64,000 bases of DNA from a virus (lineage: Duplodnaviria > Caudoviricetes): IMG/VR virus record IMGVR_UViG_3300027754_000037, one strand, 5' to 3'. A program made the position numbers and the translations under genes. The notes beneath the pieces are model-generated. The model searched no databases. It saw only the letters and a program-made list of their open reading frames with translations, and was not told the origin of the DNA. This document shows, piece after piece, positions 24,710 through 56,397 of the stretch; within the stretch, counting starts at the first letter, position 1; every line of letters starts with the position of its first letter.

Positions 24710-24976
24710 ATGGCTAGTTGGATGGACTACATGATGAATCCTAGGACTCATCATTTAAAAAAAGCGATGTATGAAATACTGAAGGAACGATATGGACCAC
24801 ATGACCAGATACTCGAAAGAGTTTCATCGTCTTTGGTGACTGAATCTGATATTCAGGATTTTTTTAAATTAATTACTTCCATTTATGAAACAGCTTATTT
24901 AAAAGCCGTAAATGATCACTCGGATGCTTTGACTAAATTGGGATTACATGCTAAAGTGGTATCGGACAAAAACTAG
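24710..24976 (+). CDS. Hypothetical protein
   Basis: 88 aa, SD AAGGTG. Confidence 0.75.
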   Translation: MASWMDYMMNPRTHHLKKAMYEILKERYGPHDQILERVSSSLVTESDIQDFFKLITSIYETAYLKAVNDHSDALTKLGLHAKVVSDKN

Positions 24977-25620
24977 GATTCAAAGCTTGGTTGATAGTCT
25001 GATGGGATCGATTCTATCAAAAAACCACCTTCCTTGGGTTCTATATTTTTTACTTTCCACCATCTTTTGAACATGGTTTTAGGGTACAGAATCGACCCCA
25101 AGGTAACTTTGTTGACATCTGTCCATACAACTAATTTGAAATCTTCCTGAACCAAGACAACACCTTCAAATGAAGATGGAGATCCATATTGAACAGTCTT
25201 TTGGGCTTCGCCATAAAGGCTGTCTATTTTAGTTCTGATTGTTGCAGGCAAAAAGTGGATGAAATTTTTTTCAATCTCTGGCTTTTGGTCTTCTTCTTTT
25301 CTTTTAAGGTCTTCTTGAATAACTGTTTTTCTTTCAAATTTTTCTGCCTCGGGGGGATCTGGCGATTTTTGCAATGGGACTTTATCTGTTTTTGGGACAA
25401 CGATTTTGATTTCGGGTTTTGTTTTTTCTAATTCTGTAACAAAGTTATCTTTAAGATCAAAATCAGACTTCTTGGGGATAACTACTGTGTTATCTTCTTT
25501 GGTTTCTGTGTCCCAACTCATGTTGTGAACCGTGAAACCATCCCAAACATCTTGCGTTTCCATAGCTGGGTTTGGGCCAAAAAGTTTGTATACACTACCG
25601 TCTTTATTGTAGAGTGTCAT
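24973..25620 (-). CDS. Putative second gp14-like head-completion protein
   Basis: N-terminus NKDGSVYKL mirrors NLDGSPYSL of 27563; C-terminal DSLYGE...LGSILYP...WWKV parallels the gp14-like barrel. Confidence 0.45.
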   Translation of the reverse strand: MTLYNKDGSVYKLFGPNPAMETQDVWDGFTVHNMSWDTETKEDNTVVIPKKSDFDLKDNFVTELEKTKPEIKIVVPKTDKVPLQKSPDPPEAEKFERKTVIQEDLKRKEEDQKPEIEKNFIHFLPATIRTKIDSLYGEAQKTVQYGSPSSFEGVVLVQEDFKLVVWTDVNKVTLGSILYPKTMFKRWWKVKNIEPKEGGFLIESIPSDYQPSFES

Positions 25621-41743: not shown

Positions 41744-43051
41744 ATGCAAACAACTACTCGGCCAGTCATCACTAACGAAGAATGGTATGAGATTAGCAAC
41801 GCTTTGGAACCACATCACGCAGTCTTCTACAAGTTATGGCAGATGGGAAAACCGGTTTTTGACGAACGAATACCTACCGCCTGCGTACAATTCGACAAGG
41901 AAGGTCAATTCGTAGTCTTCCGGTTTAACCCGAAGTTTTGGCAAGAGCTTGATCTACAAAATCGCTTGTTCGTGATCTGCCATGAGGCGCTTCACATCGT
42001 GCTCAATCACGGCATGCGTGCGATTGATGCAAAGATCAACGCACAAGCAACGAATGTGGCGATGGATGTCGTGGTCAATCACACTCTTGTCGAGAAATTT
42101 GGGTTTGATCGCAAAAATATTGACAACCAAGAAAATTACTGCTGGGTCGATACGGTTTTCAAAGACCGTGACCCTTTACCTGAAACCGATGAGGCTTTCG
42201 AGCACTATTACAACTTGTTCGAGAAGACTTACGGAGATGGTGGCATGGGTGACGGCGAGGCTGGCACACCTCAGACCGTTGATGATCACAGCGATATGGC
42301 ACAGCAAGGCCAAGATTGGGGTGATGTGATTGACAAGCTCAACGAGGGTCTTTCCGACGAGGAAAAAGAGACTCTCAAGGATACGGTAAAGAAACACTTC
42401 CAAAAACCTTCCGATAAGCCCATCGAAGATGCACCGGCTGGCACGGGCACGGGTGGTCAATGGGTTTTTGCTGGTGGACCGAAAGCTGTCAAGAAGCAGA
42501 AGTGGGAAACCATCATCCGCAACTGGGCAGCGAAGAGCATGAAGGAAAGCGACCGTGATGTCGAGCAATGGGCTAGGCTGAATCGCCGTCTGACCATGCT
42601 TCCACGAGACATGATCTTGCCATCAGAAATGGAAGTTGATGACTTCTATGACGAGAAAAACAAGATCGATGTGTGGTTCTTCCTCGACACTAGCGGTTCT
42701 TGCTGGAACCTAAAGGATCGTTTCTTTACTGCTGCCGAAAGTCTCCCAGAAAAACGCTTTAATTTGCGTTTATTCTGCTTCGACACGACAGTTGCAGAAA
42801 CCACTTTGGCCAGCAGGAAGATTTATGGTGGTGGAGGTACATCCTTTTGGATCATCGAAGACCATATTCAAAAAGTGATGAAGAATGAAAAGGCACAGTA
42901 TCCCAAAGCGGTTTTCATCATCACCGATGGACACGGTGACAATGTGAAACCGCAGTTCGCCAAGAACTGGCATTGGTTCCTGACTCAAGGCGGTTCAAAA
43001 GTTTACATTTCCAAAGAGTCGAACACCTACAATCTTGGTGACTTTGAGTAG
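41744..43051 (+). CDS. DUF2201-type metallopeptidase + VWA domain protein
   Basis: ICHEALHIVLNH (HExxH), NVAMD..VN, C-terminal LDTSGS MIDAS, GGGGTSF, ITDG. Confidence 0.9.
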   Translation: MQTTTRPVITNEEWYEISNALEPHHAVFYKLWQMGKPVFDERIPTACVQFDKEGQFVVFRFNPKFWQELDLQNRLFVICHEALHIVLNHGMRAIDAKINAQATNVAMDVVVNHTLVEKFGFDRKNIDNQENYCWVDTVFKDRDPLPETDEAFEHYYNLFEKTYGDGGMGDGEAGTPQTVDDHSDMAQQGQDWGDVIDKLNEGLSDEEKETLKDTVKKHFQKPSDKPIEDAPAGTGTGGQWVFAGGPKAVKKQKWETIIRNWAAKSMKESDRDVEQWARLNRRLTMLPRDMILPSEMEVDDFYDEKNKIDVWFFLDTSGSCWNLKDRFFTAAESLPEKRFNLRLFCFDTTVAETTLASRKIYGGGGTSFWIIEDHIQKVMKNEKAQYPKAVFIITDGHGDNVKPQFAKNWHWFLTQGGSKVYISKESNTYNLGDFE

Positions 43052-43058
43052 TCCTCTT

Positions 43059-43099
43059 AGGCGCACGCTTTCTCCTCCCGAGAGCGTGCGCCTTTTTTT
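43059..43099. terminator. Intrinsic terminator
   Basis: aggcgcacgct...agcgtgcgcct followed by T7. Confidence 0.85.
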
Positions 43100-43101
43100 G
43101 G

Positions 43102-43719
43102 CTAAAATCTGGCCCTCCAGCCCGTTTGATCCAGTTCTTGACCTAAGTCCCCAATCGGGTAACGAAAGGCCGTCTTATCGTCAAATTTGAAGCCGAAAAA
43201 AGAAATATCTAATGGGCACAGTTCCTCAACTTGCTGGATGGTTTCCGAATTGTAATATTCACGGTAGTCCAAGTGATCATTGCCACCCATTTTAGGATAC
43301 ATGATATCTTGAGGCATTCTCGTTGCCCTTTTTATTTTTTCCCAATCTTGATCGATATTTGGTAGAAGTGCGACATAGTCTACAGCAATCTGACCCGTGT
43401 AATCAGTTAGGTAGTGGTATTGCTGAGAGTTATCGTACTTCCAAGGCTCCTGTTTCAATTCTTTCATGAAGTCATCAAATGTATTTGCTTTGCATGTTGT
43501 GGTTTCCATTTTTTCATAAAAATACAAGCTCACCAACCTATCCCAAGGATTACGAACTATGGTCCAAATAAAATAATCTTTTATTTTTTCTCCCAATTTT
43601 GCCTTATTTTCCCCGAATCCTGCATGGCTATCGTTAGGCTCGGGGAATAGGTGCCAGAGGCTTCTTCCACCGCATTTCTTGATGTGTATTCGGATGAACT
43701 TGTATTCTTCGCAAATCAT
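43102..43719 (-). CDS. Sulfotransferase family 2 protein
   Basis: FIRIHIKKCGGRSL and TIVRNPWDRLVSLY. Confidence 0.85.
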   Translation of the reverse strand: MICEEYKFIRIHIKKCGGRSLWHLFPEPNDSHAGFGENKAKLGEKIKDYFIWTIVRNPWDRLVSLYFYEKMETTTCKANTFDDFMKELKQEPWKYDNSQQYHYLTDYTGQIAVDYVALLPNIDQDWEKIKRATRMPQDIMYPKMGGNDHLDYREYYNSETIQQVEELCPLDISFFGFKFDDKTAFRYPIGDLGQELDQTGWRARF

Positions 43720-44264
43720 GATTTTTTATGAGTCAGAAAGAACTCATCTTCCAGTTTGAGTAAATGATCAAGAGCCACGGCGGTCCACTTGCCGTATTTC
43801 ATGGAATATTTGAATTCATATCCCTCTAGATTTTCAGTTATAAGAAATGCCAGCCAAGGTTTTCTGGTTTTCTTCCAGCACATCATGGGTTTTCGTCCGC
43901 TGCGTCTTGCATCGGACATAGCCTGTTCCAAAAAACCGTCCAACTCGCTGTTGCCACGCATGAAGACGCTGCTCATGTCGATGCTGTCGTAGCCGCCCTT
44001 GCTTTCAATGGCAAATCCAAAATCTTCTGGGACAACGATGTCTCCGCTGAAAACTTGTTTTGCCTGTTCGCTCAACATGGTTTGCGACCAACGATTGCCT
44101 GAACCAACTGAACGACTGAAAGGCTTACCAAAACGAGATGTCAGAAGCTTGCTCAATTCGAGCTCGTTGCGGTTGCCCTTCTTCTTGCCGTTCACTTTCT
44201 TTTTCCTTGGTTTCAAAAGATCGCCATCGATGATGAAATCATCCATATTTTCAAAATCATGCAT
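43716..44264 (-). CDS. Holliday junction resolvase (PD-(D/E)xK)
   Basis: KKGNRNELELSKLL, GDIVVP...AIESK. Confidence 0.8.
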   Translation of the reverse strand: MHDFENMDDFIIDGDLLKPRKKKVNGKKKGNRNELELSKLLTSRFGKPFSRSVGSGNRWSQTMLSEQAKQVFSGDIVVPEDFGFAIESKGGYDSIDMSSVFMRGNSELDGFLEQAMSDARRSGRKPMMCWKKTRKPWLAFLITENLEGYEFKYSMKYGKWTAVALDHLLKLEDEFFLTHKKS

Positions 44265-44321
44265 TAATCCTCGATCCCGTCCTAGCAGGACGGTAAAGCT
44301 TCACCTTATTTAGAGAGTATT

Positions 44322-45455
44322 TTAGCGGTTAATATTTGCGCTTAGATTTTCAAGTTCTTTTTTCTTGGACTCAAGCTCTGCAATCAGTTCTTCAAATTCG
44401 ATCTTGCCGATAGACTGTTCTTGAACTAGCTGTTCGCTGTATTGTCTGATGTTGTTTACGATATCAATTATTTCATCGCATTTTCTGTCAACCACATCGA
44501 CACGAAGTTCATCTTTGTTTTTTAAATATTCATTTTTCGGTTTTCTGTATTCGTCTCTTTCGTTCAGTTGCGTGACGATTTGAAATTTGGGTTCTACAAA
44601 ATTAAGATCATGTCGCTTGCCATCAAATTGCCAAGGTTTGTAATTGTCTTTGAATATCTCAAACTTGTGAACATCTTTAACTTGCGTTTCTGAATCAGTC
44701 AGTCTGAAGTACCAAACTTGATTGTGGGGGAATTCAATAAGTTTATGAGACCTTGAAATACCTTTGATATCATGCACGCCTTCTTCCCATATTGCTGGTT
44801 CAGACATGAAGAATATTTGACCTAATTGCTCCCTGAGATCAACAAGCCACAGCGGTCTATGCTGGTTTCTAAAAAGCCATAGGTGCCTATCTCCTTCTAG
44901 ACCTCTTTCGCCCAGAGCAACTGCCATGTGTCCTTCGTTGATGAAGCTGAATGTGTTGCGAATTCCAGCAAGTCTTTTTGGGTAAAGATCATCTGGAAGT
45001 TCCAGATCACAGTTTTCGGCATTTTCGATAATTCGTAAAATAATTTCTGAATCACAATTTGAATTTACTACAAATTTTTGCTTGAGCGCATTGTATTCGA
45101 TGTCATCAACACGACCATTATGTACCAATCCCAACGATCTGTCTGTGCTAGTGAACGGATGATTGTTTTTGTTGAAGGCTGGTTCGCCAACACCTTTAGA
45201 AGCTCCTCTTGCGTGAACAAGCAAAAGATTTAGGTCATAACTTTGTATTTGTTTCCAAACTAAGCTTTTAACAAATTGACTAGAGCGTGTTGGTTCCTTG
45301 TGGTAAAGCAAAGCACCATCTTTGCCTGTTTCAACACCCCAATAACCGCTTGCGTCAATTCCTCTGGTTTCGCTTTTTTCAAACAGTCTGGTAATGATCT
45401 GATAAGAAACCAAAGGCTTAGTTGACTTGCCTATGAAGCCTGCGATGCCACAAAT
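44322..45455 (-). CDS. Class II (Ntn) glutamine amidotransferase, probable AUU start
   Basis: ATT-CGIAGFIG..., RGIDASG, HARGAS, NNHPF, VHNG, DSE; the ORF-track start (45413) omits the catalytic Cys. Confidence 0.85.
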   Translation of the reverse strand: MCGIAGFIGKSTKPLVSYQIITRLFEKSETRGIDASGYWGVETGKDGALLYHKEPTRSSQFVKSLVWKQIQSYDLNLLLVHARGASKGVGEPAFNKNNHPFTSTDRSLGLVHNGRVDDIEYNALKQKFVVNSNCDSEIILRIIENAENCDLELPDDLYPKRLAGIRNTFSFINEGHMAVALGERGLEGDRHLWLFRNQHRPLWLVDLREQLGQIFFMSEPAIWEEGVHDIKGISRSHKLIEFPHNQVWYFRLTDSETQVKDVHKFEIFKDNYKPWQFDGKRHDLNFVEPKFQIVTQLNERDEYRKPKNEYLKNKDELRVDVVDRKCDEIIDIVNNIRQYSEQLVQEQSIGKIEFEELIAELESKKKELENLSANINR

Positions 45456-45470
45456 AATACACCTACCTTT

Positions 45471-46055
45471 TTAGAATGCATCCATAGGACCGCTGCTACC
45501 ACCCAGAGGAGGCGCAGCCATATCTTGGCCTGTGCCTACGGGAGGTGTGCCCTGTGGAGATTGATCAAGATTCATTGGCCCCGATGGCGCTCCCTGTGAG
45601 GCGGTTTTGCCACCTTTTTCTGCTTCTGGCGGTTGAGTAGGCTCTGGAGGTTTTGTTTCCGTACCACCCGTACCCTTTTTATCTCCGGTATTTTTCTTGC
45701 CACTCTCTGTCGGGGTAAGCTTGTTGATCGGAATGCCAAGATCAGCAACTAGTTTTTCCAAGGTGTCAGAAACACCTTGAATAATTCCCGGCATATCATC
45801 TTTTTCTTCAATTGACTTCATCAAAGCTACGCCGACCTTCTGCAAAACTAAAAGATTTTTCCTCTCCTCTTTTGGCCAACTACTGTGCAAAACACGGCGA
45901 ATCTGATTTACAATTCTTTGTGAATAGGAAATCATGTCACGAGTGCCAAGATTTTTGGCATCATCTCGCAATTCATGCACAGCAGTTAAAATATTGCCGA
46001 CTTTTTGGGCCAAATAAGCCTGCTGCTCATTTAGAAGAAATTCTTTGAAACGCAT
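45471..46055 (-). CDS. Hypothetical protein with capsid-targeting-like N-terminus and P/G-rich tail
   Basis: MRFKEFLLNE; TATAAATA 4 nt upstream. Confidence 0.8.
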   Translation of the reverse strand: MRFKEFLLNEQQAYLAQKVGNILTAVHELRDDAKNLGTRDMISYSQRIVNQIRRVLHSSWPKEERKNLLVLQKVGVALMKSIEEKDDMPGIIQGVSDTLEKLVADLGIPINKLTPTESGKKNTGDKKGTGGTETKPPEPTQPPEAEKGGKTASQGAPSGPMNLDQSPQGTPPVGTGQDMAAPPLGGSSGPMDAF

Positions 46056-46059
46056 ATTC

Positions 46060-46067
46060 TATTTATA
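46060..46067 (-). promoter_or_regulatory. T4-type late promoter box TATAAATA
   Basis: Exact T4 late consensus, 4 nt before ATG 46055. Confidence 0.65.
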
Positions 46068-46118
46068 GTTGGCAAATACAAAAAATCAATATTAGGACTA
46101 AAAAGTAGAGGTGTTTCT

Positions 46119-46310
46119 GTGAAAATTGGAATTTATCAAATTAGAAATTTAATTGACAAAAAGGTCGCTCAATATAAAAACGGAAATTTTATTCAACAAT
46201 TTGAATCAGTTTCTCAAGCAAGAAAAGAAAAAAATTGTAGTAAAATCTCAGAATGTTTAAGTGGTAAAAGAAAAACCTGTGGTGGTTTCACATGGGCACT
46301 TGTTCAATAG
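46119..46310 (+). pseudogene. Internally deleted GIY-YIG homing endonuclease remnant (GIY stub fused to NUMOD1-like DNA-binding domain)
   Basis: KIGIYQIRNLIDKK joined to VAQYKNGNFIQQFESVSQA...ISECLSGKRKTCGGFTW; strong SD AGAGGTG, so it may still be translated. Confidence 0.65.
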
Positions 46311-47937
46311 GCGGGAAGTTGGATTGTCTGTAATTGTTGGCAGCTTTTATTAATCCGCAAAAAAGAGCACTTGGAAATTGCAATTTTGACTTAAACTCAG
46401 GGTGCGCTTGGGTGCCAATAAAATATGGATGGATTGAACGGTCCAATTCCATAATTTCAACCAGACCTTCGTCCGTGCTTTGACCACTTACTCTAAATCC
46501 CTTTTTCGCATATTGCTCCGTGTAGGCTGGATTAACCTCGTATCTATGGCGATGCCTCTCATGAATTATTTTGCTTCCGTAAAGCTCTAATGCCAAACTG
46601 TCTTTAACGAGTTCGCATCCATAAGAACCAAGACGCATAGTGGCAGATTTCTTCTTGAGGTTTTCTTGACCTTCAACATAGTGCACAACCGGATTAGTGG
46701 TGTTTTTATCGAATTCCAAAGAATTTGCATCGGTCAAATTGCAGGCATTTCTGCCAAACTCAACAACGGCCATCTGTAGACCTAAGCAAATTCCCAAAAA
46801 TGGTATTTTCTTTTCACGCACATACTGAATAGCCTTGATTTTGCCCTCAACTCCACGATTGTCAAATCCTCCCGGCACGATGATGCCAGAAAGTCCTTCA
46901 AAGTATTTGTGAAGACCACGAGCATCCTTGTATTTTTCTAGCTCTTCTGTCTTAACCCATCGGATATTCACACGAACATCGTTGGCGATTCCAGCATGCA
47001 TTATCGCCTCTTTGAGAGACATATAAGCTTCGTCGCAATTATCATATTTGCCAAAAATTCCAATTTCAATCGGAGTGAGATTGTTGGCAACATACTTTTC
47101 AACAACATCACGATATTTGTGAATTCGGCAGGCGCTGCGACTCAGCCTGAAAAGGTCAACAAATAAATCATCTACATGACGGTCATAGAATGAAAGGGGC
47201 ACTTTATAGACGCTTTCAACATCCGGTGCCTCAAAAATGCACTCCCTCTTGACATTTGTCATCTGCGAAACTTTAGACAAGAATTTTTCTGGCACATTTC
47301 TATCAACACGGCAAAACAAAGCATCCGGCTGAAGCCCGTGCCTTTGCAGTTCCTTGACGCTGTTTTGCAATGGCTTTGACTTGAATTCTTTGATTGTCTG
47401 GACCCAAAGAATTGGTGCAACCATGACAATAAGAACATCGTCCTTGAGTTTTTGTTTAAATTGCCTCATGGCTTCAAAATAAGCGTAGCTTTCGCTGTCG
47501 CCTACCGTGCCACCAATTTCGGCAATAACAACATCCTTGTCTTTTCCAAGCTCAATAAGTCTTTCTTGAATTTTATTGGTGATATGGGGGCTTAACTGGA
47601 TGGTTTGACCCAGATATTTACCATTTTCTTGTTCTTCAATTAATTCTTTGTAAAGAGTGCCGGAAGTGCAAATGTTGTTTTTATTGACATTTATACCGGC
47701 AATTCTTTCGTAATGTCCTAAGTCTAGATCGGTTTCTGTGCCATCGTCACACAAAAAACATTCACCGTGTTCTCGTGGTGCCAATACACCAGCATCGGTG
47801 TTTAAATACGGATCAAATTTAATCAAATCAATGCGGTGGCCTCGGAATTTAAGCAACAAACCTATGCTGGCTGCTGAAACACCTTTCCCCGTACCGCTGA
47901 TCACACCGCCAACAACGATGATATATTTGCATGACAT
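46288..47937 (-). CDS. pyrG: CTP synthase
   Basis: GGVISGTGKG, KFDPYLN, ETDLDLGHYER, GICLG, RHRHRYE, HPE. Confidence 0.97.
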   Translation of the reverse strand: MSCKYIIVVGGVISGTGKGVSAASIGLLLKFRGHRIDLIKFDPYLNTDAGVLAPREHGECFLCDDGTETDLDLGHYERIAGINVNKNNICTSGTLYKELIEEQENGKYLGQTIQLSPHITNKIQERLIELGKDKDVVIAEIGGTVGDSESYAYFEAMRQFKQKLKDDVLIVMVAPILWVQTIKEFKSKPLQNSVKELQRHGLQPDALFCRVDRNVPEKFLSKVSQMTNVKRECIFEAPDVESVYKVPLSFYDRHVDDLFVDLFRLSRSACRIHKYRDVVEKYVANNLTPIEIGIFGKYDNCDEAYMSLKEAIMHAGIANDVRVNIRWVKTEELEKYKDARGLHKYFEGLSGIIVPGGFDNRGVEGKIKAIQYVREKKIPFLGICLGLQMAVVEFGRNACNLTDANSLEFDKNTTNPVVHYVEGQENLKKKSATMRLGSYGCELVKDSLALELYGSKIIHERHRHRYEVNPAYTEQYAKKGFRVSGQSTDEGLVEIMELDRSIHPYFIGTQAHPEFKSKLQFPSALFCGLIKAANNYRQSNFPPIEQVPM

Positions 47938-55836: not shown

Positions 55837-56397
55837 ATGGAAGATTTTAGTGAATGGCTAAGAATTCGTGAAGCTTTTGGTCCATACATCGGACCATGTG
55901 TTGATACTCCCAATTATCAAGTTTGGGGCGCTTGCAGCGATCAAAATACGGATGCAAAAAACAAAAAAATTAGACAAGGAAATGTTGGACACAAGAAATC
56001 AAAATCGGCAAGGCCCTTCAAAGAACAACAGATGCAAATGACGCAACCAGTCATAGCTGATAAGGTTCCACAAAAAGAAAAATGGAGCGCATCTAAGGAT
56101 GATATTTTATCGATGTGGAAAACTCTTCCTCCCAATAATCCGATTGTAGCAAAACCCATCGGCTACGAACATCGTGGCTCAACATATGGTGAAGATGGAA
56201 TAAGAATTACAGGAAGTCCACAATTCATTTCAACTGTTATATCACATCTCAAAGATTTTATGGCTTATGAAACACCGCAAACTAAATTGGCTATTTCTTA
56301 CAGAGAGACAGAATCTCCTAGCAAATTAGCAACGGTTCAAAACAAAAAATCTTTTGTTTTCTACATCGCAGTAAAAGAGCGTGGTGGTCAAGCTTAA
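55837..56397 (+). CDS. Hypothetical protein with capsid-targeting-like N-terminus
   Basis: MEDFSEWLRIRE. Confidence 0.75.
   Translation: MEDFSEWLRIREAFGPYIGPCVDTPNYQVWGACSDQNTDAKNKKIRQGNVGHKKSKSARPFKEQQMQMTQPVIADKVPQKEKWSASKDDILSMWKTLPPNNPIVAKPIGYEHRGSTYGEDGIRITGSPQFISTVISHLKDFMAYETPQTKLAISYRETESPSKLATVQNKKSFVFYIAVKERGGQA

Follow-up and report, generated by a model that had tools for sequence, protein, structure and literature searches.

How does a phage make an enzyme that must begin with its catalytic cysteine when no ATG, GTG or TTG codon stands before that cysteine? The question is raised by an amidotransferase gene of an uncultured freshwater giant phage, on the minus strand of IMG/VR virus record IMGVR_UViG_3300027754_000037 (Duplodnaviria; Caudoviricetes), of which the whole 64,000-nucleotide stretch analyzed is called the window below. 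The predicted start of this gene is the rare codon ATT (45455–45453), which lies directly before the catalytic Cys codon and is the sole possible start there. Comparison with relatives leads us to consider it probable that this weak AUU start and an extended ribosome-binding site at a rigid spacing are co-adapted, the pair setting a limited translation rate.

Read along the minus strand, the upstream TAA stop (45473–45471) is followed in frame by AAA GGT AGG TGT ATT ATT and then by TGT GGC ATC GCA GGC TTC, encoding CGIAGF. An earlier note on this DNA had stated that no in-frame ATG, GTG or TTG lies between the TAA and CGIAGF, and the letters and frames agree with it; the earliest in-frame canonical start is the TTG at 45413, codon 14 after Cys. 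The absence of a canonical start from six codons is not improbable by chance, and it gains its significance from the constraint on Cys1 and from the relatives, ATT or ATC preceding Cys in 34 of 111 distinct homologues. The features of the start region are the following.

44322–45455, minus strand: amidotransferase coding sequence, 377 codons plus stop, with ATT (as formylmethionine, fMet), Cys1, a glutaminase domain at about residues 1–270 and a C-terminal two-helix hairpin at residues 319–376
45453–45455, minus strand: predicted ATT start codon, the sole possible start directly before Cys, the same in three independent assemblies
45450–45452, minus strand: TGT, codon of the catalytic Cys1, aligned with Cys1 of GlmS and PurF; CG[ILV]xG is kept in all homologues
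45460–45467, minus strand: predicted ribosome-binding site GGTAGGTG, with the core AGGTG (45464–45460) followed by the 4-nt spacer TATT (45459–45456)
45418–45453, minus strand: out-of-frame TTG made by ATT-TGT, 2 nt into the start codon, opening an 11-codon frame that ends in TAA (MWHRRLHRQVN)

The AGGTG core thus stands 4 nt before the ATT, as expected from the earlier claim of a correctly spaced site. The second ATT is taken as the start because the first one (45458–45456) sits 1 nt past the core, would give a product beginning Met-Ile-Cys and becomes ATC in a diverged variant from another study (run X3, see below). A start at the GTG within the ribosome-binding site, combined with a frameshift, was also considered and rejected. 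The out-of-frame TTG is not peculiar to the window, since every ATT-TGY start creates one, and ATC-TGY likewise creates a CTG.

The encoded glutaminase and its first residue

The protein is a GlmS/PurF-type class II (N-terminal nucleophile, Ntn) glutaminase domain followed by a helical hairpin. Read from the second ATT, the product has 377 residues and scores 35.5 bits against Pfam GATase_6 (cut-off 27), and the PHROG amidotransferase profiles match from profile position 1–2, PHROG 4736 being aligned from its position 2. In a PDB profile search with the family profile, position 2 (Cys) aligns with residue 1 of mature GlmS (1xff) and PurF (1ecb). The AlphaFold model (predicted local distance difference test, pLDDT, 86.6) retrieves with Foldseek the glutaminase domains of GlmS and PurF at E-values of about 1e-11 to 2e-12, with a template-modeling (TM) score of 0.70 normalized to the 1xff glutaminase domain. 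Among 29 sequences no variation is seen at R83, H112-N113-G114 and C134-D135-S136-E137; from the motifs, and not from a residue-level superposition, we take R83, N113-G114 and D135 to be the equivalents of GlmS Arg73, Asn98-Gly99 and Asp123. Past about residue 270 the model shows only short strands and the two-helix hairpin, and neither the Pfam scan nor Foldseek gave a second-domain match that would indicate a fused acceptor or synthase domain; the protein may be a stand-alone glutaminase or amidohydrolase.

A glutaminase of the class II (Ntn) type needs Cys as its first residue. The proposal of the earlier note that translation has to start at the ATT to expose this Cys is therefore upheld, the ATT being the only start directly before a residue homologous to Cys1 of GlmS and PurF. 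The fixed first residue in turn locks the position of the start, holds evolution to the two layouts described below and makes a non-canonical start recognizable.

Start codon and ribosome-binding site among relatives

A protein search yielded 441 homologues, all of them metagenomic or viral, and the codon before Cys was read at 159 loci from IMG/VR and JGI metagenomes, representing 111 distinct proteins. This codon is ATG in 58 of them, ATT in 27, ATC in 7, GTG in 10 and TTG in 9; ATA and CTG were never found before Cys among the 111, including the 34 ATT/ATC cases. Many ATT loci carry, two codons upstream, an in-frame stop that falls within the ribosome-binding site (GGTGA), so that nothing but ATT can start those genes. 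Moreover, between members of the window's clade the 14 codons that precede the TTG of the window show 244 differences at third positions versus 69 at first and 38 at second positions, from which it follows that these N-terminal codons are translated in the amidotransferase frame. Database annotations often miss this: among the top 120 database homologues about 45 gene calls lack the Cys-Gly N-terminus, being restarted at a downstream ATG or TTG (some may be contig-end fragments), and two others (P0010 and P0058) are extended upstream and read Ile-Cys-Gly. Cultured phages gave no megablast match, and by tblastn they gave a single, weak match, to an Enterococcus phage.

The start codon is closely associated with the site in front of it. 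GGTG followed by four nucleotides precedes the start at 29 of 34 ATT/ATC loci and at 1 of 77 canonical loci (0/58 ATG, 0/10 GTG and 1/9 TTG), and the predicted pairing of the ribosome-binding site is about −10.9 kcal/mol in the former versus −5.0 kcal/mol in the latter (p ~1e-13), the window's own site consisting of merely the 5-nt AGGTG core. The aligned spacing is 4 nt at 27 and 5 nt at 6 of the 34 ATT/ATC loci, compared with 0–12 nt at canonical loci. On a maximum-likelihood tree of the aligned proteins, obtained by a quick search, the ATT/ATC state requires at least 12 changes, at least 8 of which are forced by well-supported branches, and the window falls within a nine-member clade that is entirely ATT, at about 57–72% protein identity (nearest relative 71%). 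In eight phylogenetically independent pairs, start codon and site go together in 5–6, go in opposite directions in none and show no difference in 2–3 (p ~0.03). At these loci the neighboring genes have sites that are as weak in one group as in the other (−3.0 versus −2.65, p 0.76), so the strong site is not a lineage or host effect. In the 64-kb window and in a 225-kb relative, the amidotransferase gene is the sole long frame that combines a near-cognate start and a ribosome-binding site with no canonical start beside it. On these comparisons, it is specifically in this gene that start codon and ribosome-binding site are linked. The leader in the window folds no better than shuffled sequences (z +0.6), and no tRNA gene that could provide a special initiator was found in the window or in the 225-kb relative.

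Proposed mechanism and competing explanations

In the mechanism that we favor, initiator fMet-tRNA would start translation at the AUU, and removal of Met would expose the catalytic Cys1. The extended site, including GGUG at its fixed 4-nt spacing, would recruit the 30S subunit strongly and put the P site exactly on the AUU, where the strict spacing may also keep it, rather than on the out-of-frame TTG. Weak codon and strong site together would then limit the translation of an internal cistron that begins 15 nt past the stop of a conserved upstream gene. A comparable set-point could be reached in relatives either by ATG, GTG or TTG with a weaker, loosely spaced site or by ATT or ATC with a strong, rigid one, and lineages would have switched repeatedly between these two layouts. 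Lower initiation efficiency, a frame-keeping role of the fixed spacing and any contribution of re-initiating ribosomes are inferred. Among these near-cognates, a transition from ATG can produce ATA alone; that ATA-TGY would create an out-of-frame ATG would explain why ATA is never seen. As to the strength of such starts, conserved AUU and AUA starts with extended, correctly spaced sites reach about 10% of AUG in S. aureus (PMC13009471), and in E. coli AUU has been placed 6–8 fold below AUG (PMC3592434) or at 1–2% of it (10.1101/063800).

Several points weigh against this mechanism. The pairing was scored with a generic 16S tail that may not be that of the host; the independent-pairs test has only 8 pairs, and the tree search was run without bootstraps. 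Ascertainment accounts for some of the apparent ATT excess among enzymes of this class, a non-canonical start being recognizable from sequence only when the identity of residue 1 is fixed. Many ribosomes could be captured by the out-of-frame TTG that lies 2 nt further on, and the real output could be even lower than assumed. No RNA run containing the window stretch was found among the public runs searched.

It has to be asked whether the ATT is real and used at all. A single G-to-T change from a true ATG would yield identical letters, a fallback that the earlier note had kept as a possible read error, and gene callers do shorten the protein, a 97%-identical homologue (P0001) being called from TTG. 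On the other hand, the window stretch is present in freshwater metagenomes of many studies, and among the contigs of four public runs aligned to the window, three span the start (X2, X3 and X4; that of X6 stops short). The contig of X2 shows no differences over 44609–45771 and that of X4 none over 45305–45542, each from a different study, and that of X3 is a 97.5%-identical variant (depth 29, 43 differences in 1755 nt) that is changed at 45444, 45456 and 45465 and unchanged at 45453–45455 and in the AGGTG core at 45460–45464. At the position where the earlier note would have expected reads or relatives to reveal an ATG if it were wrong, ATT is thus kept in contigs of three other studies, one of them a diverged variant, and ATT or ATC recurs in the 34 distinct relatives; together with the purifying selection on the N-terminal codons, this disposes of the read error and makes any sequencing or assembly error, or a dead gene, extremely improbable. 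Other routes to Cys1 fare hardly better. B. subtilis PurF has a cleaved propeptide, and a similar one could be made here from an upstream start; the upstream TAA, which is in frame in the window, could be read through; or the TTG at 45413 could start a protein that lacks the Cys. Against these routes, many relatives carry an in-frame stop within the ribosome-binding site, two codons ahead of Cys; the upstream gene of relatives lies in other frames, with gaps of 14 or 16 nt; and relatives have no start codon at codon 14, and the 13 preceding residues are conserved. We regard this group of explanations as very improbable.

The two layouts might also be equivalent and without regulatory meaning. 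With the start locked by Cys as residue 2, an ATG-to-ATT change could be rescued only by reversion or by a stronger site, giving near-neutral toggling, and the excess of ATT would largely be ascertainment. The repeated switches scattered over the tree, the compensatory direction of site strengthening and the occurrence of both layouts in the same gene order are all as such toggling would have it. Yet ATT is retained throughout the nine-member clade of the window, though nearby synonymous third positions differ in about 60% of pairwise comparisons, which argues for selection on the pair; ATA, the near-cognate within reach of a transition, is absent from the 34 loci; and the layout occurs in no other gene of the 64 kb and 225 kb surveyed. 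Toggling alone is accordingly possible but unlikely. A further explanation would make the AUU start a timing switch, by which synthesis of the enzyme depends on initiation factor 3 (IF3) in the infected cell, either through low host IF3, as the earlier note had suggested, or through phage-made IF3 that shuts the gene off later. IF3 discriminates against AUU, as in E. coli infC and pcnB. This discrimination is established for E. coli (see also PMC9723500), infC and pcnB are cited in PMC13009471, overexpression of IF3 lowers re-initiation (PMC2268962), and huge phages are known to carry IF3 (PMC7162821). Full-length IF3, with N and C domains (IF3_C E-values of 1e-24 to 1e-30), is indeed encoded in 9 of 41 related giant-phage records (L162:1171–1767 and L163:1237–1773, both plus strand, and L164–L170). 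Where readable its start is apparently ATG, unlike the AUU or AUA typical of bacterial infC, so that autoregulation by IF3 would not reach the phage gene. In the records that are 45% complete or more, however, IF3 is found in 4 of 4 ATT/ATC phages versus 3 of 7 canonical ones, a difference that is not significant (p ~0.1); ATG-started relatives carry IF3 too, and tblastn with the phage IF3 proteins found no match in the 64-kb window. Furthermore, phage-made IF3 would lower the use of AUU, so that a link with IF3, if it exists, would probably run opposite to the low-IF3 proposal. The tie to low IF3 activity that the earlier note proposed derives from E. coli infC and pcnB and is not supported by these comparisons, and we hold an IF3-gated switch to be doubtful. 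A bolder version, in which an ATG-started phage IF3 of these freshwater giant phages is designed to target ATT/ATC starts behind rigid sites and, as it accumulates, shuts off the glutaminase and other AUU-led genes, is a long shot; if true, it would be the first time that a function and a regulon are defined for phage IF3 genes.

Gene neighborhood and comparison with known systems

The amidotransferase gene belongs to a module at 41744–47937 of the window, comprising genes for a CTP synthase, a 194-aa protein with a Pro/Gly tail, the amidotransferase, a PDDEXK_15 nuclease and a DUF2201 metallopeptidase-like protein. The features next to the amidotransferase gene are the following.

45471–46055, minus strand: upstream cistron from the open reading frame list, 194 aa, with a helical N-terminal domain and a Pro/Gly-rich tail ending in GPMDAF; its TAA lies 15 nt before the ATT
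43716–44264, minus strand: downstream PDDEXK_15 nuclease-like gene (Pfam PF24608, E 1.6e-23)
46060–46067, minus strand: TATAAATA box resembling a T4 late promoter, 4 nt before the ATG of the upstream cistron, leaderless-looking; a putative promoter

Around the amidotransferase gene of 110 distinct loci, the CTP synthase is found at 63, the 194-aa homologue, directly upstream, at 86, the PDDEXK nuclease, downstream, at 96 and the DUF2201 gene, usually on the other strand, at 45. The conserved module suggests a shared function in nucleotide or DNA metabolism. The 194-aa protein has no Pfam or PHROG match; its tail had suggested a single-stranded DNA-binding protein, a candidate that was rejected because the Atlas model shows a bundle of helices. 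The Pro/Gly-tail protein is not the immediate upstream neighbor in every relative: among 10 upstream proteins scanned, the atypical ones are an IMPDH/GMP reductase homologue, an S-adenosylmethionine decarboxylase (examples of these two at L001:1946–2989, L106:884–1999 and L040:2555–2986) and a PLD-like protein, with no nucleases.

The 15-nt spacer between the upstream TAA and the ATT, on the same strand, contains no promoter-like or terminator-like site. Of the 34 ATT/ATC loci only 18 have a spacer of at most 20 nt, so the ATT layout can do without close coupling. Boxes similar to TATAAATA or to TATAAT stand 4–7 nt before the ATG of many genes that have no ribosome-binding site, including those at 55837, 54985 and 24973–25620 (minus strand), and look like T4-late-type promoters making leaderless messages. 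The earlier note had fitted the ATT start into such a leaderless pattern; this may apply to the upstream gene, with its box 4 nt before the ATG, and does not extend to the amidotransferase gene, an internal cistron with a ribosome-binding site of its own.

A practical consequence concerns annotation. Gene callers limited to ATG, GTG and TTG cut off the catalytic Cys in many homologues, and the proteins so annotated would be enzymatically dead on paper. The family further offers a natural, replicated experiment on the trade-off between start-codon strength, site strength and spacing, with 34 ATT/ATC and 77 canonical versions of a single gene in the same gene order; it suggests a rule by which ATA is avoided where an out-of-frame ATG would result; and its amidotransferase is a concrete candidate target for the IF3 genes of huge phages. 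The ATT start itself is known already from the GenBank-annotated amidotransferase of phage phiEco32, and what is added here is the quantitative covariation of start codon and ribosome-binding site; a literature search found no paper describing the pattern of ATT-started phage amidotransferases.

The glutaminase domains of GlmS and PurF share with the phage protein the fold, the N-terminal catalytic Cys and the HNG and CDSE motifs, whereas their acceptor domain (isomerase or phosphoribosyltransferase) is replaced by the C-terminal helical hairpin. In phi32_83 of phiEco32 (ABY52884.1), also a phage Ntn amidotransferase, the GenBank coding sequence likewise reads ATT and then TGT GGC ATC, with Cys1 right after the ATT. 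That protein is, however, a different and much longer one (676 aa), without a tblastn match to the window protein, and its leader (L161:16521–16560, minus strand) carries a small hairpin, AAGGG-TTTA-CCCTT, directly before an AGGTGG site with a 7-nt spacer to the ATT, whereas the leader in the window has no significant structure.

Among bacterial genes, E. coli infC, which encodes IF3, and pcnB likewise have AUU as their sole start, conserved among relatives, and infC also closely follows another cistron. There, AUU lowers translation, and IF3 dependence and autoregulation have been demonstrated experimentally; the gene in the window encodes a phage enzyme, and only Ntn enzymes have the Cys1 constraint by which the start position is fixed. 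S. aureus cvfC1 (AUU), ccpN (AUA) and infC (AUA) likewise have a conserved non-canonical start behind a strong, extended site set at a short, defined distance, an arrangement proposed to serve attenuation, at about 10% of AUG (PMC13009471). AUA, used by two of these S. aureus genes, is absent from the phage family, which is distinguished from them by its repeated switching between 34 ATT/ATC and 77 canonical versions of the same gene.

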